64,000 bases of DNA from Candidatus Eiseniibacteriota bacterium (GTDB lineage Bacteria; Eisenbacteria; RBG-16-71-46): contig CAVQXP010000002.1 of the NCBI GenBank assembly GCA_963717935.1, positions 1 through 64,000 of the forward strand, given 5' to 3'. Position 1 is the first letter of the stretch, and each line of letters begins with the position of its first letter. This document shows positions 6,878 through 44,724 of this stretch, piece after piece. Position numbers and translations under genes: made by a program. Under the pieces are notes generated by a model. It saw only the letters and a program-made list of their open reading frames with translations, made no database searches and was not told where the DNA came from.

Positions 6878-7152
6878 CGTGAGGGTCTCGAGTGCGATGG
6901 TGCGGGCCGGGCTGGGGCTCGTGCGCGAGTGGAAGACCCGGCCTTGCTCATGTACGGCCTCCTGGCCCGAGCGGGCGGGCGCTCGGGGCTCCGAGGCGTG
7001 CGACTGCCCCCCGCGGGGGCGTGCGACATGACCGACGACATGGTCGAATCAGCCCCGGCCGATCTGGCCGAGCCAGTTGCCAGAGTGTAGTCGCGGAACG
7101 CTCACCCACCTAGCGCGCGATGCGCTGTACCTGGTCTTCGGAGTCGGAGAGC

Positions 7153-8382
7153 TCAGTGATCCTCCGCCTCCTCGATCAGATGCAGCAGCACCTGCCCGCC
7201 CTCGGGGATGCTCGCGACGTCGCCGGGGATGAGTGCGAGCGCGTTGGCGCGGGCCATCGAGGAGAGCACGCCCGAGCCCTGCGGCCCCGAGAGCCGCGCG
7301 TGCAACCCGCCACCCTCCTCGCGCACGAAGACCCGCAGGAAGTGCAGCCGGTCGTCCCCGGCCCGCCGCGTCCACGGCGTCTCGAGCGTGCCGCGCCGCT
7401 CCGGGCGGAACAGGCGCGCAAGGCCCATCATGCGGCGCAGCAGCGGGCGGACGTACTCCTCCATCACGAGCATCGCGGCGACGGGATTGCCGGGGACGCC
7501 GAACACGGGCTTGCCGCCGAGCCGCCAGAGCCCGAGCGGCCCGGCGGGCTTCTGGGCGACGCGCCAGAAGACGCGCTCCGCGCCCAGTTCGTCGAGCACG
7601 TCCTTCACGCAGTCGTACTCGCCCATCGAGACGCCGCCGGTGGTCACGATCGCGTCCGCGGCGGCGGTCGCCTCGCGGAGCGCGCGCGCGACCTCTTCGC
7701 GGCGGTCGGACACGCGCGGGAACGGCACGGGCAGCGCGCCGAAGGCCACGGCCTGCGCGCGCACGGCGTGCAGGTTGGCGTCGCGGATGCGCCCCGGCCC
7801 GGGTGGCTCGGCCACGTCCACGAGTTCGTCCCCGGTGGTGATGATCGCGAGCCGCGGCCGCGGATGGACGGAGACCGTGGCGCAACCGGCCACGGCCAGC
7901 AGGCCGACGTCCGCGGGCCGCAGGACGTCGCCCCGCGCGATCACGCGGGCGCCGGTCGCCAGGTCCTCGCCCGCGAGGCGCACGTTCGCGCCTTCGCGCA
8001 CGGGCCGGCGGACCTCGACGGTGTCTCCGGCCGACTCCGTGCTCTCGACCGGGACCACGGCGTCCGCGCCCGCGGGTAGCGGCGCGCCGGTCATGATCCG
8101 CAGCGCCGTGCCGGGCTCGACCGCGCGCGCCGCGACGTGGCCCGCGGGCACGTCTTCCAGCACGCGCAGGCGCGCGGGCGTCTGCGCGGTCGCACCCGCC
8201 ACGTCCGCGGCGCGCACGGCGAAGCCGTCCATGCCGGAGTTGTCGAACGGCGGCGCGGGGTCGGCGGCGAGCACGTCCGCGGCGGCGACCAGTCCGAGCG
8301 CCTCGTCGAGCGGCACGCGCCGGGCGGGACTCGTCACGGCCGAGTCCAGCACGCGCTGCAGCGCCTCGCGGTGGGTGAGCAT
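7153..8382 (-). CDS. moeA: Molybdopterin/tungstopterin metal-insertase MoeA
   Basis: PPFDNSGMDGFAVR, RIMTGAPLPAGADAVVPVE, TGDELV, TTGGVSMGEYD, PGNPVA, QGSGVLSSM. Confidence 0.95.
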   Translation of the reverse strand: MLTHREALQRVLDSAVTSPARRVPLDEALGLVAAADVLAADPAPPFDNSGMDGFAVRAADVAGATAQTPARLRVLEDVPAGHVAARAVEPGTALRIMTGAPLPAGADAVVPVESTESAGDTVEVRRPVREGANVRLAGEDLATGARVIARGDVLRPADVGLLAVAGCATVSVHPRPRLAIITTGDELVDVAEPPGPGRIRDANLHAVRAQAVAFGALPVPFPRVSDRREEVARALREATAAADAIVTTGGVSMGEYDCVKDVLDELGAERVFWRVAQKPAGPLGLWRLGGKPVFGVPGNPVAAMLVMEEYVRPLLRRMMGLARLFRPERRGTLETPWTRRAGDDRLHFLRVFVREEGGGLHARLSGPQGSGVLSSMARANALALIPGDVASIPEGGQVLLHLIEEAEDH

Positions 8383-8387
8383 CGTGT

Positions 8388-8816
8388 CTACTCGATCACG
8401 CGGCGGTGGAGGAAGGACCAATGCCGCCAGGTCTTCGGCATGTGCGAGCCGATCGAGGCGACGGCGGTGGCGGCGAGGTAGAACTCGAGCCGCGCCGCGG
8501 GGAACAGCGCCCCCAGTCCGAGCAACGCCAGTTTCAGCAGGACCGCGACGCCGTTGCCCTGGTACAGGTACGCGCCGCTCTTCCAGAGGTCCACGCCCAG
8601 CAGCAGCAGCCCGCTGGCGATCGTGAGCGCGATGGCGGAGGTCAGCGCCGGCTCCGGGACCGAGTAGGCCACGCCGCCGAGCACGAGCCCCATCGCCACG
8701 ACGTGCACCGTGCGCGCGGCCACCTGCACCGCGCGCAACCCGCGGAACGTGCGCGGGGGGCGGGGCGCGAGACGCTCGCGCAGGCTCCCGCGTTCGGCTG
8801 CGGCCCCGGCTGGCAT
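8388..8816 (-). CDS. Small hypothetical membrane protein (about 4 TM)
   Basis: C-terminal part of ORF 8388..11201; hydrophobic helices and SHMPKTWRHWS motif; tightly packed between pruA and moeA. Confidence 0.75.
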   Translation of the reverse strand: MPAGAAAERGSLRERLAPRPPRTFRGLRAVQVAARTVHVVAMGLVLGGVAYSVPEPALTSAIALTIASGLLLLGVDLWKSGAYLYQGNGVAVLLKLALLGLGALFPAARLEFYLAATAVASIGSHMPKTWRHWSFLHRRVIE

Positions 8817-8818
8817 GG

Positions 8819-10402
8819 TCAGACGCCGATGCCCGGCATGCGCGGCATGGTGATGCGCTCGGACGTGGTCTTGCCCTGCGTGAAGTTCATGAGGTAGTCG
8901 GGGCCGCCGGCCTTCGAGTCGGTGCCCGAGAGGTTGAACCCGCCGAAGGGGTGCACGCCCACGAGCGCGCCGGTGCAGCCGCGGTTCAGATAGAGATTGC
9001 CGCAGTGGAACTCGTGCTTCGCGCGGTCGATCCGCTCGATGCTGGTCGAGTAGACCGCGCCGGTCAACCCGTAGCGCGTGTCGTTGGCGATGTCCAGCGC
9101 CTGGTCGAAGCTCGTGGCCTCGATGACGGCCAGCACCGGCCCGAAGATCTCCTCCTGGCCGAGGAACGAGCGCGACGTCACCTGGTCGAAGATCGTGGGC
9201 GCGAGGTAGTGGCCCGGGCGGTCGAGCGCGTTCCCGCCCAGCAGCAGCCGGGCCTCCGCCTTGCCCCGTTCGATGGCCTTGAGGATGCCGGCGTGCGCCC
9301 TGGCGTTCGCCACCGGCCCGGTGAAGACGCAGGGGCCGTCCCACGGGAGCCCGGCGGGCAGCGGCTTCGTCTTCTCGAGGATCGACGCGACCAGGCGGTC
9401 CTTCACGGCCGCGTGGACGATGAGGCGCGAGCAGGCCGAACACTTCTGTCCCTGGAAGCCGAAGGCCGAGCGCACCACGTCGCTCGCGGCCGCGTCCAGG
9501 TCGGCGGTCTCGTCCACGACGATGGCGTCCTTGCCGCCCATCTCCAGGACGAAGCGGGTCATCCACCGGCGCCCGGGCTCGGGCTTCGAGGCGATCTCGT
9601 TGATGCGCAGGCCCACGTCGGCCGAGCCGGTGAAGGAGACGAAGCGGACCTCGGGGTGCGTGACCAGGTAGTCGCCGACTTCGCCGCCGGGGCCGGGCAG
9701 CAGGTTGATGACGCCGTCGGGCACGCCCGCCTCGCGCGCCAGCGCCACGAAGCGCGCGGCGATCACCGGCGTGTCGGAGGAGGGCTTCAGGAGCACGGCG
9801 TTGCCGCTCACCACGGCGGCCATGGTCATGCCGGCCAGGATCGCCAGCGGGAAGTTCCACGGCGCGATCACCGCGCCGACGCCCAGCGGGATGTAGTAGA
9901 AGCAGTTGTCCTCGGTCGGGATCCGGGTGAGCGGCTGGTACTGGAAGTGCTTGAGCGCCAGCCGCGCGTAGTACTCGCAGAAGTCGATGGCCTCGGTGAT
10001 CTCGGCGTCGGCCTCGTACCAGTCCTTGCCGATCTCGTACGAGAGCAGCGCCAGGAAGTCGAACCGGTCGCGGCGGATGAGCGCGGCCAGCTTCATCAGC
10101 GTCTCGGCGCGGATCTCCGGGTCGGTGCGCGCCCAGGACGCGAAGGCCTTCCGCGCCTCGGCGATGGCCTCGTCCACGTGGGCGCGCGTGCAGCTGGCGG
10201 CCCGGCCGACCACGCGGTCGGGCAGGGCGGGGCAGAGCGAGACGATGCTCTTCGCGGTCTCGACGCTGCGGCCGCCGATGAGGGCGGGGTGGTAGCCGTC
10301 GAGCCCGCCCTCGAGCGCCCGGATGGCCCGCTCGGCCGCCTTGACGTTCGCGTCCAGCGAGTAGTCGCAGATGGGCTCGTTCTTGAAGCGCGTGCAGATC
10401 AT
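8819..10402 (-). CDS. pruA: L-glutamate gamma-semialdehyde (P5C) dehydrogenase, PruA/RocA type
   Basis: FKNEP start, EAIDFCEYYA, PWNFPLAI, FTGS, EMGGKDAI, FQGQKCSACSR, QEEIFGPV, SGTDSKAGGPDYL; GGAGG RBS. Confidence 0.93.
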   Translation of the reverse strand: MICTRFKNEPICDYSLDANVKAAERAIRALEGGLDGYHPALIGGRSVETAKSIVSLCPALPDRVVGRAASCTRAHVDEAIAEARKAFASWARTDPEIRAETLMKLAALIRRDRFDFLALLSYEIGKDWYEADAEITEAIDFCEYYARLALKHFQYQPLTRIPTEDNCFYYIPLGVGAVIAPWNFPLAILAGMTMAAVVSGNAVLLKPSSDTPVIAARFVALAREAGVPDGVINLLPGPGGEVGDYLVTHPEVRFVSFTGSADVGLRINEIASKPEPGRRWMTRFVLEMGGKDAIVVDETADLDAAASDVVRSAFGFQGQKCSACSRLIVHAAVKDRLVASILEKTKPLPAGLPWDGPCVFTGPVANARAHAGILKAIERGKAEARLLLGGNALDRPGHYLAPTIFDQVTSRSFLGQEEIFGPVLAVIEATSFDQALDIANDTRYGLTGAVYSTSIERIDRAKHEFHCGNLYLNRGCTGALVGVHPFGGFNLSGTDSKAGGPDYLMNFTQGKTTSERITMPRMPGIGV

Positions 10403-10547
10403 CCTGGGCCTCCCGTGGGAATGACGCGGCCATTCTATCCCACGCCGCATCCGTCTGGCACCCCGCCGCGCGCCCTGAAAACCCGCGTGGGTTGTGGCAT
10501 ACTCCCCGCCGCGAACATCGGCTCACCCTGGAGTGCGCGGAGACGAC

Positions 10548-11330
10548 ATGGAGCCCATGGAACTCAAGGAGATGAAGGCGGCCCACCGGGTCCTGGCCGC
10601 GCTCGACTACCCGCCGGGCGAGGTCGAGCGCGGCTACGCGAACCGGACGCTGCACGTGGACCTGGGCGCGAACACGATCGAGGCCCGGCCGGTCACGCAG
10701 TACATGAAGGACTTCTTCACCGGGGGCAAGGGGTTCGACCTCTACCTGATGTGGAAGTCCGTCCCCGGCCCGATCCCCTGGGACGACCCGCGCAACGGGC
10801 TCTACTTCTCCGCGGGGCCGCTGGCCGGAACGCCGTATTTCTCGGGCTCGGGCAAGTGCCTGGTCACCGGCATCTCGCCGCTCACCAGCTCCGTCATGGA
10901 CTGCAACGTCGGCGGGCACTTCGGGCCGCTGCTCAAGTTCGCCGGCTTCGACGCCCTCGAGGTGCGCGGCAAGGCCTCCGAGTTCGTGATGCTGGTCATC
11001 GACGGGGACGCGCACCGCGTCACGCTCGAGACCGCGCCGCACGAGGCGCTCGACTCCTACGACGTCGCCAGCCAGCTGCACCGCATGTACGCCCGCACGC
11101 CCGCCGAGCTGCAGGACATCTCGGTCGTGTCGGCGGGCCGGGGGGCGCTCCACACGCTGATCGGCTGCATCAACATCTCGTTCTACGACTGGAAGCGCCA
11201 CGAGCCGCGCCTCAAGCAGGCCGGCCGCGGCGGACTGGGCAGCGTGATGATGAACAAGCAGCTCAAGGCGATCGTGGCCCGGACGGCGAAGAACCGTCCG
11301 CGCTGGGCGATGTCGGTGGAGGCGCCATGA
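10548..11330 (+). CDS. Stand-alone aldehyde:ferredoxin oxidoreductase N-terminal domain (WorS-like)
   Basis: GYANRTLHVDLG, TGGKGF, SPLTSSVMDCNVGGHFGPLLKFAGFDAL, AGRGGLGSVMMNKQLKAI. Confidence 0.9.
   Translation: MEPMELKEMKAAHRVLAALDYPPGEVERGYANRTLHVDLGANTIEARPVTQYMKDFFTGGKGFDLYLMWKSVPGPIPWDDPRNGLYFSAGPLAGTPYFSGSGKCLVTGISPLTSSVMDCNVGGHFGPLLKFAGFDALEVRGKASEFVMLVIDGDAHRVTLETAPHEALDSYDVASQLHRMYARTPAELQDISVVSAGRGALHTLIGCINISFYDWKRHEPRLKQAGRGGLGSVMMNKQLKAIVARTAKNRPRWAMSVEAP

Positions 11331-22006: not shown

Positions 22007-22007
<1 letters not shown>
20190..22007 (-). CDS. polX: DNA polymerase/3'-5' exonuclease PolX
   Basis: NPFRVRAY, GSFRRRRDTVGDLD (intact DxD), YFTGSKEHN; PHP motifs DLHVHT, TEHS, DTDAH. 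Confidence 0.95.
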
Positions 22008-25496
<3,489 letters not shown>

Positions 25497-25658
25497 GGGG
25501 TTCCCGGGTGGGGGGACGGGTGGTGCGTTCGAGATTCGCGAGGCCAGCCTAACCCGCCCCGGCCGGCTTGGAAAGTTGGCGGCCCGGCCGGCCTGAGGCT
25601 AAGATGCGGGCGACATGAACGAGCCCGGGATGAACAGACCCAGCGGAGTCCGGCGGCC

Positions 25659-32501: not shown

Positions 32502-34088
32502 CTATGCCTGGGCCGCCGCGGCGGGCTCGGGGTGCTTCTCGAGCCAGCGGTTGAACAGCCACATGGCGAGAGCCGAGGCGAAGCCGATCGCCATCAGGAT
32601 GATCCACCCCGCGGCGTTGTTCCACGGGACCAGCTCGAGCAATCCGTCGGGCCGCACGGTGGCGTCCCTGGCCATGACCTCGTTGAAGATGAGCGCCCCC
32701 ACCGGGCCGCCGGTCAGCGAGCCGATGGCGAGCGGCAGGTTGGCGTAGCCCAGGAAGAGCCCCTCCTGGCCCTTGGGCGCAAGCGCGCCGATGTACTCGT
32801 ACATGCGCGGCGAGGTGAACAGTTCGCCGAAGGCGATCAGCGCGACGGTGAAGATCAGGAACATCGAGCCGACCGGCAGCCAGTTCGCGGCGAGCGCCCG
32901 CAGTCCGCCGGGCTCCCAGATCGGGAAGAGGTTCAGGATCATCGCCAGGCCGATGATCACCGTCCCGATGACGATCGAGCGGATCGCCCGGACCTTGCCG
33001 AAGAACGCCGTGACCAGCAGCTGGAAGCAGACGATGATGAAGGGGTTCGCCGCCGTGTAGAGGTCCATGGCCGGCTTGGTCTCGATCACGCGCTTCGCGT
33101 AGAGCGGGAGCACGTTGTAGACCTGGTTGTAGAGGAAGAAGAAGCCGCTCATCACGATCAGGAACATGGTGAAGCGCTTGTTGCGGAGCACCAGCACCAT
33201 GTCGAGCAGGATGCGGCCGATCGAGCGGCGCGGCCTGGGAGGCGTCCCGGCGGCGACCTCCATGTCGCGATAGAAGAAGAGCACCACGAAGAACGCCACG
33301 ATCGAGGCGACGGCCGCCACCGCGAAGATGTAGGACAGTCCGGCCTCCGAGCGCGCGGTCGGAGGCGCGCGGTGGACGAGCCAGGCGATGGCGAGCCCGC
33401 CGCCGACGATCAGCGCGGCGAAGGGCAGCGCCGTCCAGGCCCGGTGCCCCTTCTGCGACTTCGACTCGACCGAGCGGTAGACCAGCAGGATCAGTGCGGC
33501 GGCCACCAGTCCGCAGATGCCCACCACGGTCAGCGTGGTGGCGAAGCTCGAGCCGGTGCGCACGACGAACGCCACGCCGCGCCCGACCAGCGAGCCGATG
33601 TTGATGATCATGTAGAAGATGGCGAAGCCCAGCGTGACGCGCGCGCCGGCGCTCTTCTGCATGGTCCCGGAGATGCAGGGCTTGATCACCGATCCGCCCA
33701 TGCCGATCAGCAGGATGGCGACGAGGACCGTGGCGATCAGCCCGGGCGAGGCCGTGAACTCATTGTGGACGACCGGCGAGAGCACCGCCCCGCCGAACCA
33801 CACCGGGTAGCCCATCAGGGCGTAGCCGGCCGCCAGCAGCACGAAGGCCACCAGCAGAGAGCGGCGGAACCCGACCTGGTCGGCGATCGTGCCCGAGAGG
33901 ATCGGCAGGAAGTAGACCAGGGTCCACAACACGCTGTTGAGGTTGGAGGGCCAGTACGCCCCGAGGCCGAGCTGGCCGAGATAGATGACCACGAAGCTGG
34001 CCATCGAGTAATACGCGGCGCGCTCGAACAACTCGGTGACGTTGGCGCTCCAGAACACGTTGGGGAACTTCGCGTGGGCTTCGGCCAT
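32502..34088 (-). CDS. MFS transporter, POT/PTR-like peptide transporter
   Basis: ELFERAAYY, GTIADQVGFR, IKPCISG, FYMIINIGSL, GELFTSPR. Confidence 0.88.
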   Translation of the reverse strand: MAEAHAKFPNVFWSANVTELFERAAYYSMASFVVIYLGQLGLGAYWPSNLNSVLWTLVYFLPILSGTIADQVGFRRSLLVAFVLLAAGYALMGYPVWFGGAVLSPVVHNEFTASPGLIATVLVAILLIGMGGSVIKPCISGTMQKSAGARVTLGFAIFYMIINIGSLVGRGVAFVVRTGSSFATTLTVVGICGLVAAALILLVYRSVESKSQKGHRAWTALPFAALIVGGGLAIAWLVHRAPPTARSEAGLSYIFAVAAVASIVAFFVVLFFYRDMEVAAGTPPRPRRSIGRILLDMVLVLRNKRFTMFLIVMSGFFFLYNQVYNVLPLYAKRVIETKPAMDLYTAANPFIIVCFQLLVTAFFGKVRAIRSIVIGTVIIGLAMILNLFPIWEPGGLRALAANWLPVGSMFLIFTVALIAFGELFTSPRMYEYIGALAPKGQEGLFLGYANLPLAIGSLTGGPVGALIFNEVMARDATVRPDGLLELVPWNNAAGWIILMAIGFASALAMWLFNRWLEKHPEPAAAAQA

Positions 34089-34201: not shown

Positions 34202-35674
34202 CTACTCGATGGTGCGGATGCTCAGATCCCGCCGGCCCTCTTGGTCGGAGATGATCTCGTGATCGGGGTTCGCCGGGTCCCGGATCATCCGGCCGTCCAC
34301 GAGGAAGGCGTAGGGGGTCCTGCCCGGCGGCAGCACGAAGTCGCCCGCCCAGCCGTCCGCGGTCCGCGCGAGGAACGAGAAGAGAGACCACCGCGAGATA
34401 CCGAACACACACACGAAGCGGGCGTCGCGGTATCCCTCGAGCTCGAAGCGGGCGTTCGCGGCGGGCGGACGGTCCCCGTTCAGCCGTGCCAGGAGCGTCC
34501 GCACCGCGGGCAGATAGGCCCGCCGTGCCACGGGATCGGTGGAATCCGCCGCCGCCTGGCGCTCCAGGCAGGCTCTCGCCCCTTCCGGGTCGCCGGTCAC
34601 GAGCCGCGCGAGCCCCTCGTAGAACTCGGCGGCCGGGTCCGCGCGGCCGCCCGTCCCCAGCCACTCGTCGACGAAGACACGGGCGTCGGCGAAGCGGCTG
34701 GTCCGGTACAGGGCGCCGCAGAAGATGTGGCGCAGGGCGGCCAGGCGCGCCGGTTCGGGCAGCGTGTCACGCATGCGCTCGGAGATCCGCACGGCCGCGG
34801 CGGCCCCCTTCGCCTGACAGGCGTCCCGGATCGTCACGATCGGGGCGTCGCGGAACAGCGTGCGCATGAGATAGGACCGCTTCCCCCGCGCGAGCAGGTC
34901 CTGGATCGTGAAGTGGTAGGCCTTCCGGAAGTCGCCCGCGTAGTAGAAGTAGATGTCGCCCGTCGCCAGGTTCGCGATGTTGGTGTAGACGGTGCTGACA
35001 CCCCGGCGCTGCTGGGTGGAGTCCATCACCGCCCGGAAGCTCTCGAGGCTCACGCCGCGCGCGGCAAGCATCCGTTCGGCGATGGGGAAGCGCCAGCACG
35101 TCAGGGCCCAGGGCGAGGAGCGCTGCGTGCAGACGTTGAAGTTGGTCGAGATCTGAGGGCCGGTCTGCGTCAGGCACACGCCGTCCGCGTTGACGATGGC
35201 CAGGTTCCCCAGACGGTCGGCCACGTGGAGCTGGCCGCCCAGCAGCGAGGGCAGGCGATAGGTCTCGAACAGCGCGAGGACCTCGGGCACGGTGGCGCAC
35301 GTCCTCAGCATGTGCTTCACGAAGGCGGGATCCTCCCCCGGGAAGTCCTTCTTCCTGTCCCAGTCCCGGTATTCCGACGTGGGAATCCCGGGCAGCGCGT
35401 TGAGATCGAGGAACAGGCCCCGCTCGTTGAGCCCGCCCTGCACGAACGCGTGGGGCCGGTCGTAGGGAAGGGTGTACGTGAAGGCGATCACGCCGAGCAG
35501 GCCGCGCTCGCGAGGCAGGACGTTCAGGTACGTGTCGAAATCGAACGCGTAGTCCTCGTTGTTGCCGGTCCACACGTCGCCGCCGGGGGCCCGGCCGGAG
35601 ATGATCGTGCAGGCGTCCGCGACACCGGCGAGGAGCGCGATGAGCAGGCAACAGGCGGCGAAGAGACGTCCCAC
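34202..35674 (-). CDS. Secreted Ntn-hydrolase (peptidase C45-like) with helical/TPR and C-terminal CBM48-like regions
   Basis: Signal ending ADA followed by nucleophile CTII; GNNED, GGLNERGL, STNF, TVYTNI; C-terminal LPPGRTPYAFLVDG...DPANP. Confidence 0.78.
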   Translation of the reverse strand: MGRLFAACCLLIALLAGVADACTIISGRAPGGDVWTGNNEDYAFDFDTYLNVLPRERGLLGVIAFTYTLPYDRPHAFVQGGLNERGLFLDLNALPGIPTSEYRDWDRKKDFPGEDPAFVKHMLRTCATVPEVLALFETYRLPSLLGGQLHVADRLGNLAIVNADGVCLTQTGPQISTNFNVCTQRSSPWALTCWRFPIAERMLAARGVSLESFRAVMDSTQQRRGVSTVYTNIANLATGDIYFYYAGDFRKAYHFTIQDLLARGKRSYLMRTLFRDAPIVTIRDACQAKGAAAAVRISERMRDTLPEPARLAALRHIFCGALYRTSRFADARVFVDEWLGTGGRADPAAEFYEGLARLVTGDPEGARACLERQAAADSTDPVARRAYLPAVRTLLARLNGDRPPAANARFELEGYRDARFVCVFGISRWSLFSFLARTADGWAGDFVLPPGRTPYAFLVDGRMIRDPANPDHEIISDQEGRRDLSIRTIE

Positions 35675-35843
35675 GATGGCACCTCCGGGGTGGATGGGCG
35701 CGCGGCGACCGCGCGCCGGCTCACGCCAGCGAAACCCACCCATCCGGTGTCCGTCAAGCGGGAAGCGACGAGTGCCGGTCCGGCACGACGTGTGAACGGG
35801 GCGCGGGTCGTCGCACGGCAGGGGCGGGACCGGTTCGGAGCGT

Positions 35844-38015
35844 TCAGAGGACGAGCAGGGCCGCGAGCGCGACGGCCGCCGCCAGCGCGGCGGTCGCCGG
35901 CAGGCCCAGCATCGGGATCGCGACGAGGCCCGCGACGAGCGACCCGGCGCAGCCCCCGAGCAGGTCGGCGGCATAGACGGGGCCGATGACGGTGCCCCCG
36001 TCCGGCGTGCCGTGGAGCACGGCGTAGGCGAACGCGGCGGCGACCAGGAAGCCGCAGGCGAAGAGCAGTGTCCCCGCGCCCGCGAGCGCGCCGCCGGCAC
36101 CCGCATGGAGCAGTGCCGCGCACGCGAGCCCGAGCGCGGCGAGGGCGACGAAGGCGAGCGCGCCGGCGAAGCGCCCGGTGCCGGGCCGGCGCATCAGGCG
36201 CTCCATCGCCCGCGCGCCCAGCGCCAGCCCGCCCATGAACGCCATGAGCAGCGCCCCGAGGTCCTGGTAGAGCACCCCCGAGCGCGTCTGGTAATCGAGC
36301 AGGAGCGCCGACTCGAGCAGCATGCCCGCGAAGCCCGCGGCCGCGGCGAGCAGGGCGCGGCGCGGCATGGCGTGCCGCCGCGCGAGGAGGAAGGCGAACC
36401 CGAGCAGGGCCGTCGCGGCCCACGCCCACGGCGACCGGGCCAGCGTCCGGGCCTCGACCTCCGGCAGGTCGAGGCGCCCCAGCGAAGGGAAGAAGCGCGC
36501 GAGCCAGAGCATCATCGTGGTCTGGTAGCAGACGGGCCGGGCGTCGCGATTGGCGAGCGCGGGCGTGTCGGCCAGCTGCCGCGCGATCTCCGCGAACCGG
36601 TCGTTGGTGTAGAGGTAGCGCACGTACGCCGGGGTGACGAGCCGCGTGCCGGGGTCGCGCGCGGGCAGGCGCCCGCCCAGCACCGCGGGATCCCGCACCA
36701 GCGGCGCGCGCGAGGCGAACAGGAGGCTCGTGGTGCCCGGCAGCACCACGGTCGCGGGGAAGACCTGGTGCAGCGCCCGGTGGATGCTCGCCGTGCGCCG
36801 GGCGAGCACGGGCGTCCAGAGGTTCTCGGCGCTCCTCAGGCGCAGCGCGAGCACGCCGCCGGGCGCGAGGTGAGCGGCGCAGGCCGCGAAGAACTCGCGG
36901 GTGTAGTAGCGGTTCGTGCGCCCCGACTCGGGCTCGGGCAGGCCGATCAGGATGAGGTCGTACACCTGGGCGTGGTCGAGGAAGCGGCGTGGATCGGCGA
37001 ACGCGACGTGCACGCGCGGATCCGCGAGTGCCGCCCGCTGCGGGTCCGGCAACCGCGGCGCGACGAGCGCCAGGAGCGTCGCGTCCAACTCGACGTCGTC
37101 CACGCGCGCAAGGCGGTGGCGGAGGAGCTCGAGCACCAGCCCCTGCGCGGCTCCGCCCAGGACCAGCACCCGGCCCACCGTGTCGCGCTGGACGGCGGCC
37201 AGCTGGACGAACTCCTCAGCTGCGGTGCCCTGGCTCTCGTAGGCGAGCGCGTCGTTCTCGAACACCGCGACCTGGCCGAGCGTGCCGGTCACGGTGACGC
37301 GCCCGTAGGGCGTGTCGCGCGTGGCGAGCAGGCCCGGATGGTTCCAGCGCGTCATGCCCCGGTCGAGAGCGGGCGCCACGGCCAGCAGGACGAGCGCGAG
37401 GAGGAGGCCCGCGGCGGCGGCCGGCCCGCGACCCGCCTTCGGCGGGTGCCCGGTGGGTGTCCGGCTCGCGCCCGAGCCGGGCCAGGCGGCGGCGCAGGCC
37501 GCGATCCCGCAGAGCAGCGCGGCGTCCCAGTTCTGCAGCCCCGCGGCGGACAGGAGCGTGGCGAGCAGTCCCCCGAGCAGACCGCCCGCGCTCTCGAGGG
37601 CGTAGGCGGCCGCGGGCGAGCGTCCGGTCGCGATGAACCGCCGGGCCGTCCACTGGAAGAGCAGGCCGAGCAGGAGCGAGACGGGCACCAGGCAGAGCGC
37701 CAGGGCGAGCAGTTGCCGTTCGAACGGCAGGTAGGCGCCCGGTACGCCGCCGAAGAGGATGCGCACGCCGCGCGCGAGCACGACCGCGAGCGGCAGCAGG
37801 AGCCCGAGGGCGACGAAGAGTCGCCGCACCGCGCGCTCGCCGGGCGGCTGCGCGCCACGGCCCGGGGCGGCGCCGGCGGCGGTGCCGAGGAGCCAGGCGC
37901 CCAGCCCCAGCACGAGCACCAGCTCGCTGCCGAAGAACGCGACCTCGCACTCGCGCAGCAGCACCACCTGCGCGAGCAGCGCGATGGCGCCGACGGCGAA
38001 GAGCCGGAGTCTCAT
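35844..38015 (-). CDS. Membrane-embedded spermidine-synthase-like (SAM-binding) protein flanked by TM regions
   Basis: QVVLLRE...FFGSEL, AYALESAG, DTPYGRV, VLVLGG, VELD, NRYYTREFF, YAADLLGG. Confidence 0.82.
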   Translation of the reverse strand: MRLRLFAVGAIALLAQVVLLRECEVAFFGSELVLVLGLGAWLLGTAAGAAPGRGAQPPGERAVRRLFVALGLLLPLAVVLARGVRILFGGVPGAYLPFERQLLALALCLVPVSLLLGLLFQWTARRFIATGRSPAAAYALESAGGLLGGLLATLLSAAGLQNWDAALLCGIAACAAAWPGSGASRTPTGHPPKAGRGPAAAAGLLLALVLLAVAPALDRGMTRWNHPGLLATRDTPYGRVTVTGTLGQVAVFENDALAYESQGTAAEEFVQLAAVQRDTVGRVLVLGGAAQGLVLELLRHRLARVDDVELDATLLALVAPRLPDPQRAALADPRVHVAFADPRRFLDHAQVYDLILIGLPEPESGRTNRYYTREFFAACAAHLAPGGVLALRLRSAENLWTPVLARRTASIHRALHQVFPATVVLPGTTSLLFASRAPLVRDPAVLGGRLPARDPGTRLVTPAYVRYLYTNDRFAEIARQLADTPALANRDARPVCYQTTMMLWLARFFPSLGRLDLPEVEARTLARSPWAWAATALLGFAFLLARRHAMPRRALLAAAAGFAGMLLESALLLDYQTRSGVLYQDLGALLMAFMGGLALGARAMERLMRRPGTGRFAGALAFVALAALGLACAALLHAGAGGALAGAGTLLFACGFLVAAAFAYAVLHGTPDGGTVIGPVYAADLLGGCAGSLVAGLVAIPMLGLPATAALAAAVALAALLVL

Positions 38016-38094
38016 GCCCGACCCGGGCGGTTCGTGGATCGCCCGGGCCGGGTCCCGTGCCCCGGCCGCCGCGGCCGTCGCGCGCGGCCGCGAC

Positions 38095-39675
38095 TCACCG
38101 GAACTGCGATTCCCGGAAGTGGATGCTGCGGAAGGTCCAGAACTCGGCGCCACTCTTCCACGCGTCCTTCGTGAGCCCCGCCTTGAGGCAGAGGTTCTCC
38201 ATGAGCGCCGTCTTGTCCCAGCCCTGCTCGGCCGGCACCTGCGGCAGGAACACCGCCACGCGGCCGTCCTTGCGGATCTGGACCCCGTCGCGGCCGAGGA
38301 CGACCGCGTCGGGGCCGGCGACCCGCTCGAGCGGGGTGAGCACCGAGATCTCGATCTCGAGGTCCCCGAGCTCCGCGGGCTCGACGGGCGGGAAGCGCGG
38401 GTCCTCGAGCGCGGCCGAGAGCGCCATGGCCCCGACGTTCTGCGCGAGCGGCCGGTCCCCGGCCAGGTGGCCGATGCAGCCGCGCAGCTCGCCGCGCGCG
38501 TAGAGGGTCACGAACACGCCCTGCTTCCGCCGGGCGGCGGGGGAGAAGCCGCGCGGGAGCGGCACGGTGCCGGTCGCGAACCAGCGCTCGAGCGTGCGGC
38601 GCGCCAGCCGCAGCAGCGCCCTCTGGTCGGCGGGGCCGAGCGCCGCGTCCCCCGCCGGATCGGGTGGGGGGCCGAGCGCCGCGGTGTCCGCGTCTCCACG
38701 GCCCGAGGTGAACATCACCGCGCCGTAGCCCACGACGTGCGCGGGGTCGCCCACCGGCACGTCGCCGCTGTTCGCCCGCGACAGCACGATGCCGCGCCGG
38801 GCGCCCAGCGCCCGCGCCGCCTCCATCGCCACCATGACCGCCCCCTCTCCGCAGGCGCAGGTTTCGAGGCCGCGGTGGCCGGCCCGCAACTGCGCCGCCG
38901 CGACCTGCTGCAGTGCCGCCGGATCGAGCCGCGCGATGGCGGCAAGCACGGCGCGATCCGCGGCGAGACTGCCCTCGGAGTCGGGGTAATGCGACAGGTC
39001 GCTGCTCGCCACGATCAGGACGCGGCGTCCGGCGAGCACGCGCGCCAGCGCCTGGGCGATGCGCGCCAGGGCCGGCGGGTCCTCCGTGCCGACGACCACG
39101 GGCAGGATCCTCGCATCCGGCAGCACGACCTGCGCGAACGGCACCTGCACCTCGATCGAGTGCTCGCGCTCGTGGACACGCGCATCCGAGTTGAAAGGCC
39201 CGCCCGTGGCCAGCAGCGCCGCGGCGGCCGCCGTGTCCACCTCGGCCACGCCCAGCGGCGTGCGGAAGCCCGCCCCCGGGTAGACGGAGGCGCCCGAGAA
39301 ACCCGGCGTCGTGTGGTTCGTGCCGAGGATGACGACCAGGTCGTACGCCCGTCCCGCCGCCTGGCGCCAGCCGTCGGCTGCGATCTGCCCCGAGTAGACG
39401 TAGCCCGCGTGCGGCAGGACCAGCGCGACGGGGCGCTCGTTGCGCGCCGGGACGGCGTCGGCGAGGAACGCCTTCACCGCGGCCTCGAGCTTCGCGGGCT
39501 CCTTCGGGTAGAACTGTCCCGCGACCGCGGCCGGCCGCACGCCGGCCTCCGGCGTCGTGGCCGCGGGGGAGGAACAGGTCGAGGCGCTGAAGACGAGCGC
39601 CGCGGCGAGCAGAGCCGGCAGGGCGATCCAGGGGCCCGGGCGCTTCACGAGCCGGCGCAGCGGAGGGTTCGTCAT
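38095..39675 (-). CDS. amrB: AmrB-AmrA fusion (MEMO1 plus AMMECR1 domains) with N-terminal signal-like segment
   Basis: Hydrophobic leader, VRPAAVAGQFYP, PHAGY, EHSIE, SSDLSHY, VVGY; then GVFVTL, LRGCIG, DPRFPP, EISVLTP, FLPQV. Confidence 0.9.
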   Translation of the reverse strand: MTNPPLRRLVKRPGPWIALPALLAAALVFSASTCSSPAATTPEAGVRPAAVAGQFYPKEPAKLEAAVKAFLADAVPARNERPVALVLPHAGYVYSGQIAADGWRQAAGRAYDLVVILGTNHTTPGFSGASVYPGAGFRTPLGVAEVDTAAAAALLATGGPFNSDARVHEREHSIEVQVPFAQVVLPDARILPVVVGTEDPPALARIAQALARVLAGRRVLIVASSDLSHYPDSEGSLAADRAVLAAIARLDPAALQQVAAAQLRAGHRGLETCACGEGAVMVAMEAARALGARRGIVLSRANSGDVPVGDPAHVVGYGAVMFTSGRGDADTAALGPPPDPAGDAALGPADQRALLRLARRTLERWFATGTVPLPRGFSPAARRKQGVFVTLYARGELRGCIGHLAGDRPLAQNVGAMALSAALEDPRFPPVEPAELGDLEIEISVLTPLERVAGPDAVVLGRDGVQIRKDGRVAVFLPQVPAEQGWDKTALMENLCLKAGLTKDAWKSGAEFWTFRSIHFRESQFR

Positions 39676-40598
39676 CCTCGGCTCCGGGGAGCGGGACGCA
39701 TCACGTGCGCGGGCGCGTCGAGCGCGGCCAGGTCCGCGCCGGGCTCGCCCGCGGTGAACAGGACCGCACCATAGCCCACGACGCGTGCGCGGTCGCCCGG
39801 CGGAGCGTCGCCGCTGCTGGCGTGCGAGAGCACCGCGCCGCGCGTGGCGCCGAGCGTCCTCGCGGCCGCCAGCGCCGTGAGCACCGGCGCCAGGCCGCAG
39901 GCGCAGGTGTCGAGCCCGCGGCGCCCGGCGCCCTCCTCGCGGGCGATGGTCTCGCGCAGCCCGTCCGGGTCGAGCCGTGCCATGGCGGCCAGCACCGCGC
40001 GGTCCGCGGCGACGGCGTCCTCGTAGGAAGGGAAGTGCGAGAGGTCGCTGCTCGCCACGATCAGCGCGCGGCGGCTGGCGAGCACGTTCGCGAGCGCCAC
40101 GCCCAGCCGGGCGCACAGGTGCGGGTCCTCGTCGCTGACGATCACGGGCAGGATGGGCACGCCGGGCAGCACGGTCTGCACGAACGGCAGCTGCACCTCG
40201 ATCGAGTGCTCGCGCTCGTGCGGCGCAGGGTCCGAGGAGCAGTCGCGGTCGGCGGCGAGCAGGGCGGCGGCGGCCTGCTCGTCCACCTCCACGACGCCGA
40301 GCGGCGTGCGGAAGCCGCTGCCGATGAAGACCGAGACGCCGGTGAAGAAGCCGGCGGTGTGGTTCGTGCCGAGCAGGACGACCAGATCGTAGCGGTGGCC
40401 CTGGGCCTGCCGCCAGGCGTCGGCGGCGATCAGCCCCGAGAAGGCGAAGCCCGCGTGCGGGACGACCATCGCGAGGGGGCGCCCGCCGCGCGGCGGCAGC
40501 GCCACCGCGAGCAGGGCCCTCACGTCGGCCGCGAGGCGCCGCGGCTCCTGCGGGTAGAACGAGCCCGCCACCGCGGGCGGGCGCACCGGCTGTCTCAT
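39672..40598 (-). CDS. amrB: AmmeMemoRadiSam protein B (MEMO1 family), no signal peptide
   Basis: VRPPAVAGSFYP, PHAGF, EHSIEVQLPF, SSDLSHF, CACG, VVGY. Confidence 0.92.
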   Translation of the reverse strand: MRQPVRPPAVAGSFYPQEPRRLAADVRALLAVALPPRGGRPLAMVVPHAGFAFSGLIAADAWRQAQGHRYDLVVLLGTNHTAGFFTGVSVFIGSGFRTPLGVVEVDEQAAAALLAADRDCSSDPAPHEREHSIEVQLPFVQTVLPGVPILPVIVSDEDPHLCARLGVALANVLASRRALIVASSDLSHFPSYEDAVAADRAVLAAMARLDPDGLRETIAREEGAGRRGLDTCACGLAPVLTALAAARTLGATRGAVLSHASSGDAPPGDRARVVGYGAVLFTAGEPGADLAALDAPAHVMRPAPRSRG

Positions 40599-40602
40599 CG
40601 CG

Positions 40603-41853
40603 TCAGCTCCACACGCCCGGGATCGCGCGGGCGCAGTGCTCGCAACGTCCGTCCTTCAGGTGCATTCCGGTCACGAACAGCCCATCGCGCTCGATCACCG
40701 TCCTGCCGCACTTCGGACAGTAGGTGTTGTTCCCCGGGTGTCCCGGCACGTTGCCCACGTACGCGAAGTGCAGGCCCTGCTGCAGGCCGATCTCCCGCGC
40801 GCGCTCGAGCGTGGCCACGGGTGTGCCCGGGAGGTTGGGCAGCTGGTAGTCGGGATGGAAGCGCGTGAAGTGGACGGGCACGTCGGGCCCGACCTCGCCC
40901 ACGATCCACTTCGCGAGTTCGGTCAGCATCCCGGGCGAGTCGTTGAGCGTGGGCACGACCAGGTTCACGATCTCGAGGTGCACGCGGCTCTTCGCCACCT
41001 GCCGGATGCTGCGCAGCACGGGCTTCAACTCCGCTCCGCACACGTCGCGGTAGAAGCCCTCGCTGAACCCCTTGAGGTCCACCTTGATGGCATCGAGCAC
41101 CTCGCACATCTCGGCCAGCGGTGATTCGTTCATGTAGCCGCACGAGATCAGCACCGAGCGCCGGCCGAGCGGCCTGCCCGCCCGCGCGATGTCGGTCAGG
41201 TACTCGGTGAAGACCGTCGGCTCGTTGTAGGTGAAGGCGATGACCGGCGCCCGCCGCTCGACCGCGGCGCGTGCGAGGCTCGCGGGGGGCAGCGGCGCCT
41301 GAGCATAGTCCTCGGGGCGGGCCTGCGAGATCCCCCAGTTCTGGCAGAACTTGCAGCGCAACGGGCAACCGCTTGTCGCCAGCGAGTATGCGGCCGCTCC
41401 CGGCAGGAAGTGGAAGAACGGCTTCTTCTCGATCGGGTCCACGTGGATGGCCATGGGCCGCCCGTAGACCAGGCTCCTGAGTTCCCCGTTGACGTGGATG
41501 CGCGCCCGGCACATGCCGCGCTCGCCCTCGGCCAGCGTGCAGTCCCGCGCGCACAGCGTGCAGCGGATGAGCGCGCGCCGGTGCGCGGGCTTCACGCCCG
41601 CGGCGAGCGAGCCCGCCGGGTGACAGGCCGCGCAGTCGGCCCTGCCCGCGGTGGCGGTGGAGACCCAGTAACGCGCCCGCGGCGCGGCGCGGACCAGGTC
41701 CGCGAGCAGGTCGTTCGCGGCGCAGGCGGGCTCGAGCGGGAGCGGGAGCCACCCGTGCGACCCGGAGAGCAGGGTGCTTCCCGCCAGCAGGGCCCCGCAG
41801 GTGGCGCAGGTCCTCAGCAGGAAATCACGGCGGGTGGATGTGCGTCGGGACAT
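40603..41853 (-). CDS. amrS: AmmeMemoRadiSam radical SAM enzyme with twin-arginine signal
   Basis: TRRDFL leader; CTLCARDC, DPIEKKPFFHF, CPLRCKFC (CxxxCxxC), FTYNEP, HFTRFHP, YVGNVPG, CPKC, CEHC. Confidence 0.92.
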   Translation of the reverse strand: MSRRTSTRRDFLLRTCATCGALLAGSTLLSGSHGWLPLPLEPACAANDLLADLVRAAPRARYWVSTATAGRADCAACHPAGSLAAGVKPAHRRALIRCTLCARDCTLAEGERGMCRARIHVNGELRSLVYGRPMAIHVDPIEKKPFFHFLPGAAAYSLATSGCPLRCKFCQNWGISQARPEDYAQAPLPPASLARAAVERRAPVIAFTYNEPTVFTEYLTDIARAGRPLGRRSVLISCGYMNESPLAEMCEVLDAIKVDLKGFSEGFYRDVCGAELKPVLRSIRQVAKSRVHLEIVNLVVPTLNDSPGMLTELAKWIVGEVGPDVPVHFTRFHPDYQLPNLPGTPVATLERAREIGLQQGLHFAYVGNVPGHPGNNTYCPKCGRTVIERDGLFVTGMHLKDGRCEHCARAIPGVWS

Positions 41854-41944: not shown

Positions 41945-44659
<2,715 letters not shown>

Positions 44660-44724
44660 GGGCTCTCGTCGGAATGTGACGGACGCGGTGCGAGGATCCA
44701 CCGCGGGCCACGGGGTTGCAGCGG

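Follow-up and report, generated by a model that had tools for sequence, protein, structure and literature searches.

A candidate extracytoplasmic variant of the AmmeMemoRadiSam system in a Candidatus Eiseniibacteriota bacterium

Described systems and how the locus compares

AmmeMemoRadiSam systems are composed of three protein families, AmrA (TIGR04335), AmrB (TIGR04336), and the radical S-adenosylmethionine (SAM) enzyme AmrS (TIGR04337), and their genes are clustered. We know of no biochemical role for the Memo/AMMECR1 pair, which is found from bacteria to humans. To our knowledge, radical SAM enzymes are regarded as cytoplasmic on account of their need for SAM, for a low-potential reductant, and for iron-sulfur (Fe-S) cluster assembly, which takes place in the cytoplasm. 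Here we analyzed four tightly packed genes, read in the same direction on the minus strand of positions 35844-41853 of a 64,000-nucleotide stretch (the window; contig CAVQXP010000002.1 of assembly GCA_963717935.1) from a Candidatus Eiseniibacteriota bacterium. In this order, they encode AmrS, AmrB, an AmrB-AmrA fusion, and a membrane protein that combines a major facilitator superfamily (MFS) fold with an inserted domain resembling the spermidine synthase SpeE (hereafter MFS-SpeE), and they fill the interval exactly. From the encoded sequences, we consider it probable that the four genes belong together as one module and that this module is an AmmeMemoRadiSam variant built for the outer face of the cytoplasmic membrane.

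The module shares with the canonical system the three families, each matched above its curated cut-off, the clustering of the genes, the CX3CX2C motif of AmrS, and both of the cysteine clusters that flank this motif. It differs in several respects. AmrS has both a predicted twin-arginine translocation (Tat) leader and an insert with the motif CxxCH...H; AmrA is joined to AmrB in a fusion that bears a lipoprotein-type leader, and an extra, leaderless AmrB accompanies this fusion; and a fourth component, MFS-SpeE, is found near this paralogue of AmrS only. The canonical members are soluble and without export signals, which does not hold for the module in the window. Taken together, the place where the proteins are predicted to act, the AmrB-AmrA fusion, and the additional component MFS-SpeE mark the locus as a variant of the AmmeMemoRadiSam system.

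Burroughs et al. 2019 (J Biol Chem 294:10211) reportedly introduced the term 'Memo-AMMECR1 systems'. That study is cited for these systems in PMC7159879 and listed among the references of PMC7694686. Our literature search returned no description of an exported AmrS; Burroughs et al. 2019 may already cover secreted or membrane-linked versions. In PMC10924467, the term 'radical SAM' refers only to a neighboring gene that is unrelated.

PMC13128918 describes the HXS antiphage system, in which the radical SAM proteins HxsB/C mature the effector HxsA in the cytoplasm, and export follows. As in the reading proposed here, a radical SAM enzyme is tied to a periplasmic end product. However, only the substrate has a signal in the HXS system, whereas here the enzyme itself carries a Tat leader (PMC13128918).

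The closest solved fold to AmrS is that of the pyruvate formate-lyase activating enzyme (PFL-AE; PDB 3cb8 and 3c8f). The match to 3cb8 had a Foldseek E-value of 1.9e-14 (TMt 0.80, root-mean-square deviation (rmsd) 2.6), and PFL-AE is also closest to AmrS by sequence (E-value 5.6e-4). In contrast to PFL-AE, AmrS falls below the TIGR02493 equivalog cut-off (47.3 vs 231.75 bits) and has extra cysteine-rich parts at its N- and C-termini. PFL-AE is cytoplasmic, unlike the predicted location of AmrS. No glycyl-radical enzyme gene was found among the genes annotated between 22 and 55 kb of the window. As the closest relative in both fold and sequence, PFL-AE suggests that AmrS may be a protein-directed, hydrogen-abstracting enzyme.

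The leader and the insert of AmrS

The amrS gene (40603-41853) encodes the long form of the AmmeMemoRadiSam radical SAM enzyme, 416 residues in length, which scored 365.8 bits against TIGR04337 (cut-off 220) and 55.3 bits against PF04055. Residues 95-415 correspond to positions 11-333 of the TIGR04337 profile, with about 90 residues before the core. The radical SAM cluster motif C163-x3-C167-x2-C170 (41344-41367) reads CPLRCKFC, and its three cysteines were invariant in the alignments. Further cysteine clusters are formed by C98/C101/C105/C115 and by C379/C382/C404/C407. The AlphaFold2 (AF2) model of AmrS has a predicted local distance difference test (pLDDT) value of 84.8.

The N-terminus of AmrS reads as a Tat signal peptide (about residues 1-46; 41716-41853), in which the motif T-R-R-D-F-L-L is followed by an h-region and by ACA/A. 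Residues 7-31, which include TRRDFLLRTCATCGALLAGS, scored 22.1 bits against the TAT_signal_seq model TIGR01409, whose curated cut-off is 16.7. The leader region has a low pLDDT in the AF2 model. A search for homologues of AmrS returned thousands of relatives; of the best 120, the majority have a length of about 416 residues and cover the query in full. R8 and R9 were invariant in 20 homologues and conserved in at least 90% of 65, and most homologues have an A-x-A type site after the h-region.

Unless stated otherwise, the comparisons between homologues refer to the best 80 of at least 598 genomic loci, which are given L-numbers where they have to be told apart. The AmrS N-termini of these 80 loci were sorted by a strict script, and doubtful ones were inspected by eye. 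The script found RR followed by a hydrophobic stretch in 64 loci (64 of the 77 in which the N-terminus could be read), KR followed by a hydrophobic stretch in four (L042 is among the KR types), and a hydrophobic leader without RR in three. It called no leader in six loci, and the N-terminus was unreadable in three. Inspection by eye added an RR in L022, classified by the script as leaderless, and in L037, classified as unreadable. The first AmrS copy of L052 has a degenerate leader, and AmrS is truly leaderless in L054, L060, and L070, all three from Thermodesulfovibrionales. In an Omnitrophota locus (L069:4900-5500), the N-terminal strand of AmrS (..REAKYYRVIEE) and a hydrophobic leader are located on a separate small open reading frame (ORF) upstream of a leaderless core; either a split gene or a frameshift may underlie this arrangement.

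A Tat-like leader was present in none of 30 canonical-type AmrS loci from the same phylum; two matches to a regular expression were spurious when inspected by eye. The second AmrS of the host genome (C4:821467-822465), a canonical one with 432.7 bits, likewise has no Tat leader. This second gene (locus L081, G000:C4:820175-822666) stands without AmrA or AmrB neighbors, and a small ORF adjoining it (820175-820861) has a signal-peptide-like start, MKRHIVSLLVTALLAGAVSFAAEP. TIGR01409 did not match the leader of the AmrB-AmrA fusion or the N-terminus of the membrane protein. The preliminary description of this DNA had read TRRDFL in AmrS as part of a Tat leader and had allowed that the true starts might lie downstream of the leaders. 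The match to the Tat model, the 64 of 77 readable loci, and the absence from the 30 canonical loci bear out the first point and argue that the leaders are real and do not stem from misplaced start codons. The conservation of the leaders as peptide features across many phyla is more than chance would give, and the predicted Tat leader of AmrS is both conserved and specific to this paralogue.

Canonical AmrS sequences start with the pattern ..ARWW.....G.V.C.LCP. The clade of the window protein has about 25 residues inserted between ARYW and V.C.LC. In the window protein, this insert in the N-terminal domain (about residues 66-93; 41575-41658) contains C74-x-x-C77-H78 (41620-41634) and H91, all of which are C-terminal of the Tat leader. 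C74, C77, and H78 were invariant in 65 full-length and 38 genomic sequences, and H91 was found in at least 90% of them. The insert is present in 40 of the 80 loci, whereas canonical AmrS is without it; its pLDDT in the AF2 model is 66-70. It is a candidate heme c site. Four observations point to covalent heme, and the insert is predicted to be a likely site of heme attachment.

Among the seven insert-bearing loci from Chloroflexota, five have a CcsA gene on the same strand, 300-2485 nucleotides (nt) upstream, and four of these five have ResB as well. The order in L036 is ResB (6028-7158), CcsA (7152-7967), AmrS (7971-9263), and AmrB-AmrA (9260-10813), with 3-nt gaps or overlaps. The genomes of L036, L041, and L055 have further PF01578 matches elsewhere, of the sizes of CcmF and CcmC, and the ResB-CcsA pair beside AmrS therefore looks like an extra set. 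L036 also holds a second, insert-less Tat-AmrS, with an MFS-SpeE gene divergently upstream. In L041 (3577-9092), a gene for a CHAT/FGE-sulfatase fusion (5618-7762) lies between CcsA and AmrS. PF01578 was found in 40 of 40 insert-bearing genomes and in 31 of 38 insert-less ones (two loci were unreadable), a weak test, as PF01578 is common in these genomes anyway. The host genome of the module has two PF01578 genes, and its TatC gene (PF00902, 193.1 bits) is located at G000:C2:369759-370376.

A profile of the insert module of AmrS, searched against 1.84 billion representative proteins, gave 73 matches at an E-value of 1e-3 or better. The N-termini of AmrS proteins account for 54 of these matches (52 with RR). 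The other 19 proteins match weakly, in at least four stretches, and 18 of them hold 4-36 CxxCH motifs and are multiheme cytochromes.

The loci without the insert have a different neighbor. Of 38 insert-less loci, 11 have a DUF362 gene that is read in the same direction as AmrS and lies less than 300 nt upstream of it, versus 0 of 40 insert-bearing ones; in the insert-bearing L048, a DUF362 match lies 5.4 kb downstream. The loci with the gene upstream are L056, L061, L064-L066, L068, L071, L074, and L078-L080. Of ten DUF362 proteins inspected, five have an RR leader of their own. A signal-bearing DUF6599 gene stands divergently beside the DUF362 gene in L065, L066, L079, and L080.

Partner proteins and distribution of the module

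A signal-less amrB, an amrB-amrA fusion with a hydrophobic leader, and a spermidine-synthase-like gene with many transmembrane segments that reads LIGLPEP had all been described from the letters of this DNA, and all three descriptions held up. Stand-alone AmrB (39672-40598, 308 residues) begins with an ATG 4 nt past the stop codon of amrS and matches TIGR04336 from its residue 6; each of the two AmrB copies scored 236.9 bits (cut-off 26). The frame of the stand-alone gene measures 327 codons from stop to stop, and together with the position of its start this leaves no room for a leader. The seven congeners all keep the amrS-amrB-amrBA arrangement and a stand-alone AmrB that is leaderless. A complex prediction for AmrS (residues 48-416) and leaderless AmrB, run without controls, gave a score of 0.00 against a mark of 0.32, which speaks neither for nor against AmrB hitch-hiking on AmrS.

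The fusion gene (38095-39675, 526 residues) starts with an ATG at 39675 that shares nucleotides with the stop codon of amrB (ATGA). Its product begins with MTNPPLRRLVKRPGPWIALPALLAAALVFSASTC and carries a Memo domain (38710-39537) and an AMMECR1 domain (38116-38619; TIGR04335, 163.5 bits, cut-off 99) behind a lipoprotein-type leader (39574-39675) that ends in Cys34 after a hydrophobic core. The cysteine after the core is kept in all seven congeners, within ..ATCSSPA or ..PACA... AmrB-AmrA is encoded just downstream of AmrS in 45 of the 80 loci, and its N-terminus could be read in 43. A hydrophobic leader is present in 40 of these 43, and in 23 of the 40 a cysteine follows the core; the lipoprotein-type leaders were counted by eye. 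The leader in L032 is ambiguous. Searched against the profile libraries, the leader of the window fusion matched only PF12454, weakly and below the cut-off.

The host genome (3.0 Mb, 93% complete) has two AmrS genes, a single AmrA, which is the fusion, and a single MFS-SpeE gene. Its four Memo matches comprise the two in the module, one at 24168-25037 of the window, and one on contig C4. The third Memo-like gene in the window (24132-25598, minus strand; PF01875 121 bits, TIGR04336 98 bits) adjoins a gene for NAD-dependent DNA ligase (22007-24157). Its product is extended at the N-terminus by up to about 190 residues but shows no hydrophobic leader; part of the extension may resemble PqqD-like peptide-binding domains.

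The MFS-SpeE gene (35844-38015, 723 residues) follows the fusion gene after a gap of 79 nt. The protein consists of seven hydrophobic helices (37365-38015), a domain matching PF01564 Spermine_synth with 46.4 bits (36435-37364), and seven more helices (35847-36434). Its AF2 model has a pLDDT of 90 and a predicted template modeling (pTM) score of 0.92. At an E-value of 1e-3 or better, Pfam gave only PF01564 for this protein and no MFS family. A search of the ESM Atlas returned only Spermine_synth clusters of its own family, from Acidobacteriota, Thermodesulfobacteriota, Omnitrophota, and Aminicenantota. Weaker, partial matches (the first approximately 440 profile positions, about 110-150 bits, covering seven helices and the SpeE domain) occur in many genomes of the phylum that have no AmrS; from their sequences, these appear to be a separate and common family of membrane-anchored SpeE-like proteins.

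We compared the model to 48,161 chains with VIA-align, which is independent of Foldseek; for helical bundles, the guide value is about 13 Z. The soluble domain (310 residues) aligned with the Thermus spermidine synthase 1uir over 274 residues (Z 25.6). The membrane part aligned with VMAT2 (9kqa; Z 24.8, 324 residues, rmsd 3.5), SotB of the DHA1 group (6kki; Z 23.3), and VAChT (8zmr; Z 22.3), followed by OCTN2, FLVCR, NorA, and MdfA. The first three, MFS carriers of organic cations, align over 324-331 residues with Z 22-25. Conserved membrane-embedded acidic residues are present in the window protein, in or at helices 1, 2, 5, and 13 (E22, E31, E141, and D684). In contrast to the MFS carriers, the window protein has 14 helices and the 310-residue soluble domain, which is predicted to lie outside.

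The SpeE-like domain interrupts the membrane part between helices 7 and 8, at the tip of the central hairpin. In 38 homologues, lysine and arginine are enriched at the N-terminus and in loops 2-3, 4-5, 6-7, 8-9, and 10-11. MFS proteins have cytoplasmic N-termini. Together with the positive-inside rule and the seven helices that precede it, this points outward for the SpeE-like domain, which is predicted to be on the outer side of the membrane. The domain shares with Thermus SpeE the Rossmann fold and retains the glycine-rich GG..G loop, the ribose-binding acid (VELD), and the adenine-binding aspartate (D341). However, a residue-by-residue alignment to 1uir and 3anx places LIGLPEP (36930-36950) at the D-x-x-D-P position of the aminopropyltransferases: YDVVIIDLTDP of Thermus SpeE corresponds to YDLILIGLPEP in the window, so that DLTDP has become GLPEP. 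Both aspartates of the motif are lost, and only the two prolines of this stretch are conserved in the family (38 homologues). Other conserved residues of the domain are N368, R369, N489, and D491. The domain also fell below the SpeE equivalog cut-offs (TIGR00417, 58 vs 249.55 bits; NF002956, 92 vs 472 bits). With the defining residues absent and these scores below the cut-offs, the SpeE-like domain does not qualify as a spermidine synthase; it also differs from one in sitting inside a transporter.

A check across genomes, proposed with the original description of the genes, was whether Tat-AmrS co-occurs with a signal-bearing AmrB-AmrA and with the spermidine-synthase-like gene. Both partners do accompany it. 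In addition to the leaders of the fusion given above, 46 of the 80 loci have an MFS-SpeE gene within 6 kb of AmrS, among them 36 of the 45 with AmrB-AmrA; in six of the nine AmrB-AmrA loci that lack it, the downstream flank is shorter than 2.9 kb. The spacing between the MFS-SpeE gene and AmrS is 18-33 nt in several loci. In a census of the phylum, 62 of 206 genomes had AmrS, with 111 AmrS hits in total. An MFS-SpeE gene was located within 6 kb of none of the 40 hits with at least 400 bits (canonical), versus 37 of the 71 lower-scoring hits, many of the misses being at contig ends. The split at 400 bits was set from the host genome's own pair (432.7 and 369.3 bits); the census classes are classes by score, and the leaders of the lower-scoring hits were read within the genus only. 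The census script left out the MFS-SpeE rows of genomes without an AmrS hit, because these cannot adjoin AmrS.

In a quick IQ-TREE phylogeny, the insert-bearing rows fall into one group of 44 (SH-like approximate likelihood ratio test (SH-aLRT) 81), which consists of a Chloroflexota subclade of seven and of 37 rows in a main clade with intermixed phyla. Four rows nested in this group are not insert-bearing: L023, L031, and L033 are without the insert, and L029 could not be read, being cut off where its contig starts. With this query, a search of five other genera of the family did not find the module, and it was present in one of eight genomes from other families of the order. The mixing of phyla in the tree and the patchy presence in family and order suggest that the module, which is spread across many anaerobic phyla, was horizontally transferred. 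Such a pattern makes it likely that the module confers a self-contained function.

The genes that flank the module in the window did not recur beside it in other phyla. On the same strand, a hybrid histidine kinase gene with receiver and Hpt domains (41945-44701) lies on one side. On the other side are a weak match to C45-like Ntn-hydrolases (34202-35677; 33.5 bits, below cut-off), which has a signal-like start followed by a cysteine, and a POT/MFS transporter gene (32502-34001). An M20 peptidase gene is also among the neighbors, with no conserved link to the module. The G+C content is 76.4-76.6% across the module (36001-40000) versus about 69-74% in the flanking 2-kb bins. One metatranscriptome run (0.09 of words shared) yielded 24 short contigs, 90-99% alike and derived from relatives, which cover parts of all four genes; these contigs show no transcript ends and are no proof of transcription of the module.

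Proposed mechanism and rival explanations

In the mechanism that we propose, AmrS would obtain its Fe-S clusters in the cytoplasm and then be exported in its folded state by Tat, and AmrB-AmrA would leave through the general secretory (Sec) pathway and become lipid-anchored at Cys34. A Tat route for an Fe-S enzyme and a Sec route for its cofactor-free partner are the split expected of real export. The CxxCH...H insert would serve as a bis-histidine heme c site, with heme attached outside by a cytochrome c maturation system. The radical SAM cluster would then be reduced via this heme by carriers of the periplasm rather than by flavodoxin or ferredoxin. Judged from the conservation and neighborhood of the insert, the heme and this path of reduction are put forward tentatively, as a little less than an even call. 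In clades without the insert, the DUF362 partner may pass on the electrons.

The MFS part, with its four conserved membrane-embedded acidic residues, might move a cation such as SAM outward, or return products. The outward-facing Rossmann domain, from which the aspartates of aminopropyl transfer are gone, might hold a nucleoside next to AmrS. These roles for the two parts of the membrane protein, read from its model, are possible but doubtful. The extra leaderless AmrB may ride out bound to AmrS, which is speculative, and the leaderless AmrB-AmrA of L008 and L027 may hitch-hike on AmrS in the same way. In a leaner variant of the mechanism, AmrS would be exported with SAM already bound and would fire once, as an activase, which fits its PFL-AE-like fold. 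By analogy, the same fold suggests that the substrate of AmrS may be a protein- or peptide-bound residue, possibly on AmrA, AmrB, or a component of the envelope. That every part holds together, with AmrS as a chimera of radical SAM enzyme and c-type cytochrome that works outside and is fed SAM by an MFS exporter with a SpeE-like docking site, we regard as unlikely.

Several observations weigh against the extracytoplasmic reading or against parts of it. In L054, L060, and L070, the leaderless AmrS adjoins a lipoprotein-type AmrB-AmrA and an MFS-SpeE gene; with its partners exported, the enzyme thus need not always be outside. The AmrS leaders of L058, L075, and L076 are strongly hydrophobic, without RR, and Sec-like or anchor-like, as is that of L042 with its KR, and a Sec-like leader on an Fe-S enzyme is a misfit with the logic of Tat export. 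AmrB-AmrA has no leader in L008 and L027, and L001, L005, and L024 have no MFS-SpeE gene despite at least 4.2 kb of downstream flank. As for the heme, residues 1-95 of AmrS matched no cytochrome family in Pfam and NCBIfam (PF10399 at E 0.069 and PF18608 at E 0.18 were taken as noise), and the profile matches to multiheme cytochromes rest largely on the C..CH columns and are partly circular. L045 has CcsA 2.1 kb upstream and yet no CxxCH. The c-type cytochromes are normally Sec substrates; we found no precedent in the literature for heme attachment to a folded, Tat-exported protein, and we know of no Tat-exported protein to which heme is attached. The counts are not independent events: in the quick tree the insert is placed as having arisen once, and ten of the 11 DUF362 loci fall into one group of 12 rows. 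Nor do we know of a pool of SAM, or of any low-potential reductant, in the periplasm, and export, heme attachment, and SAM supply are predictions only. The extracytoplasmic radical SAM pathway of the preliminary description therefore stands in part: leaders, topology, and linkage agree with it, and the leaderless AmrS of the three Thermodesulfovibrionales loci does not. Its further proposal, a role for the membrane protein in the handling of SAM or of SAM products, would follow from the fold and the topology only.

The main rival keeps the chemistry in the cytoplasm and places only its product in the periplasm: AmrS would modify AmrB, AmrA, or itself, and Tat would then export the finished complex, without turnover outside. 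No SAM or reductant would be needed outside, and the HXS system (PMC13128918) offers a precedent for cytoplasmic maturation followed by export. The three Thermodesulfovibrionales loci, with leaderless AmrS and exported partners, fit this explanation, and AmrS could carry as bound cargo the leaderless AmrB of the window as well as the AmrB-AmrA proteins of L008 and L027, which have no leader either. We nevertheless find it improbable. It does not account for a leader on the enzyme itself in at least 64 of 77 readable loci, for the outward SAM-type domain of a transporter that accompanies only this paralogue, or for the invariant CxxCH...H insert or the DUF362 partner (RR leader in five of ten). 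The leader of AmrS might also be non-exporting, a vestigial Tat-like, chaperone-binding, or tethering element that keeps the enzyme at the cytoplasmic face. Non-exported remnants of Tat leaders exist, as in NarG, and the h-region of AmrS is only moderately hydrophobic. This explanation is very improbable: the leader scores above the TIGR01409 cut-off and is followed by an A-x-A type site in most homologues, partners encoded in its operon have leaders of the Sec or lipoprotein type, the SAM-type domain of one partner is predicted outside, and a CxxCH motif, next to ResB and CcsA in Chloroflexota, would be meaningful only on the outer side of the membrane.

Two further alternatives accept the export of AmrS or leave it aside and concern single parts of the extracytoplasmic reading. 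The insert might hold no heme and instead form a zinc or iron site, or supply auxiliary Fe-S ligands loaded in the cytoplasm, with the electrons coming from elsewhere. A metal site would fit its spacing, which is similar to Cys2His2; export by Tat in a prefolded state suits cofactors loaded in the cytoplasm better than a heme added later; and AmrS already holds further cysteine clusters. That the insert matches no cytochrome family and is modeled with middling confidence points the same way. However, the motif is invariantly C-x-x-C-H and not just two cysteines, ResB/CcsA lie upstream in five of seven Chloroflexota loci whose genomes have other PF01578 genes, and outside of AmrS the profile finds proteins with many CxxCH motifs (18 of 19 multi-stretch matches). 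We take this explanation seriously without expecting it to prevail. As for MFS-SpeE, it might not supply SAM at all; it might export a substrate or product, or transfer a group to an acceptor in the envelope, and its link to AmrS would then be metabolic. Its closest folds, organic-cation and drug carriers, have many specificities, the domain has lost the aminopropyl-transfer aspartates and kept conserved residues of its own (N368, R369, N489, and D491), and its weaker relatives with seven helices and a SpeE domain occur in many AmrS-less genomes. We doubt this explanation, given the retained glycine-rich loop, ribose-binding acid, and adenine-binding aspartate of binders of SAM or decarboxylated SAM, and given that within the phylum the gene is near non-canonical AmrS only, at 18-33 nt in several loci.

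Under the extracytoplasmic reading, which we prefer, each part of the module bears an export signal that would suit its cofactor needs, and the module is widespread and conserved. New here are the link between the CxxCH insert and ResB-CcsA, the alternation with DUF362, the comparison to the canonical paralogue as a control, and the genus-wide leaderless AmrB. If the reading is true, the rule that radical SAM chemistry is cytoplasmic would be open to direct testing. It would also provide a first functional handle on Memo/AMMECR1, with one version of the pair acting on a target in the cell envelope.

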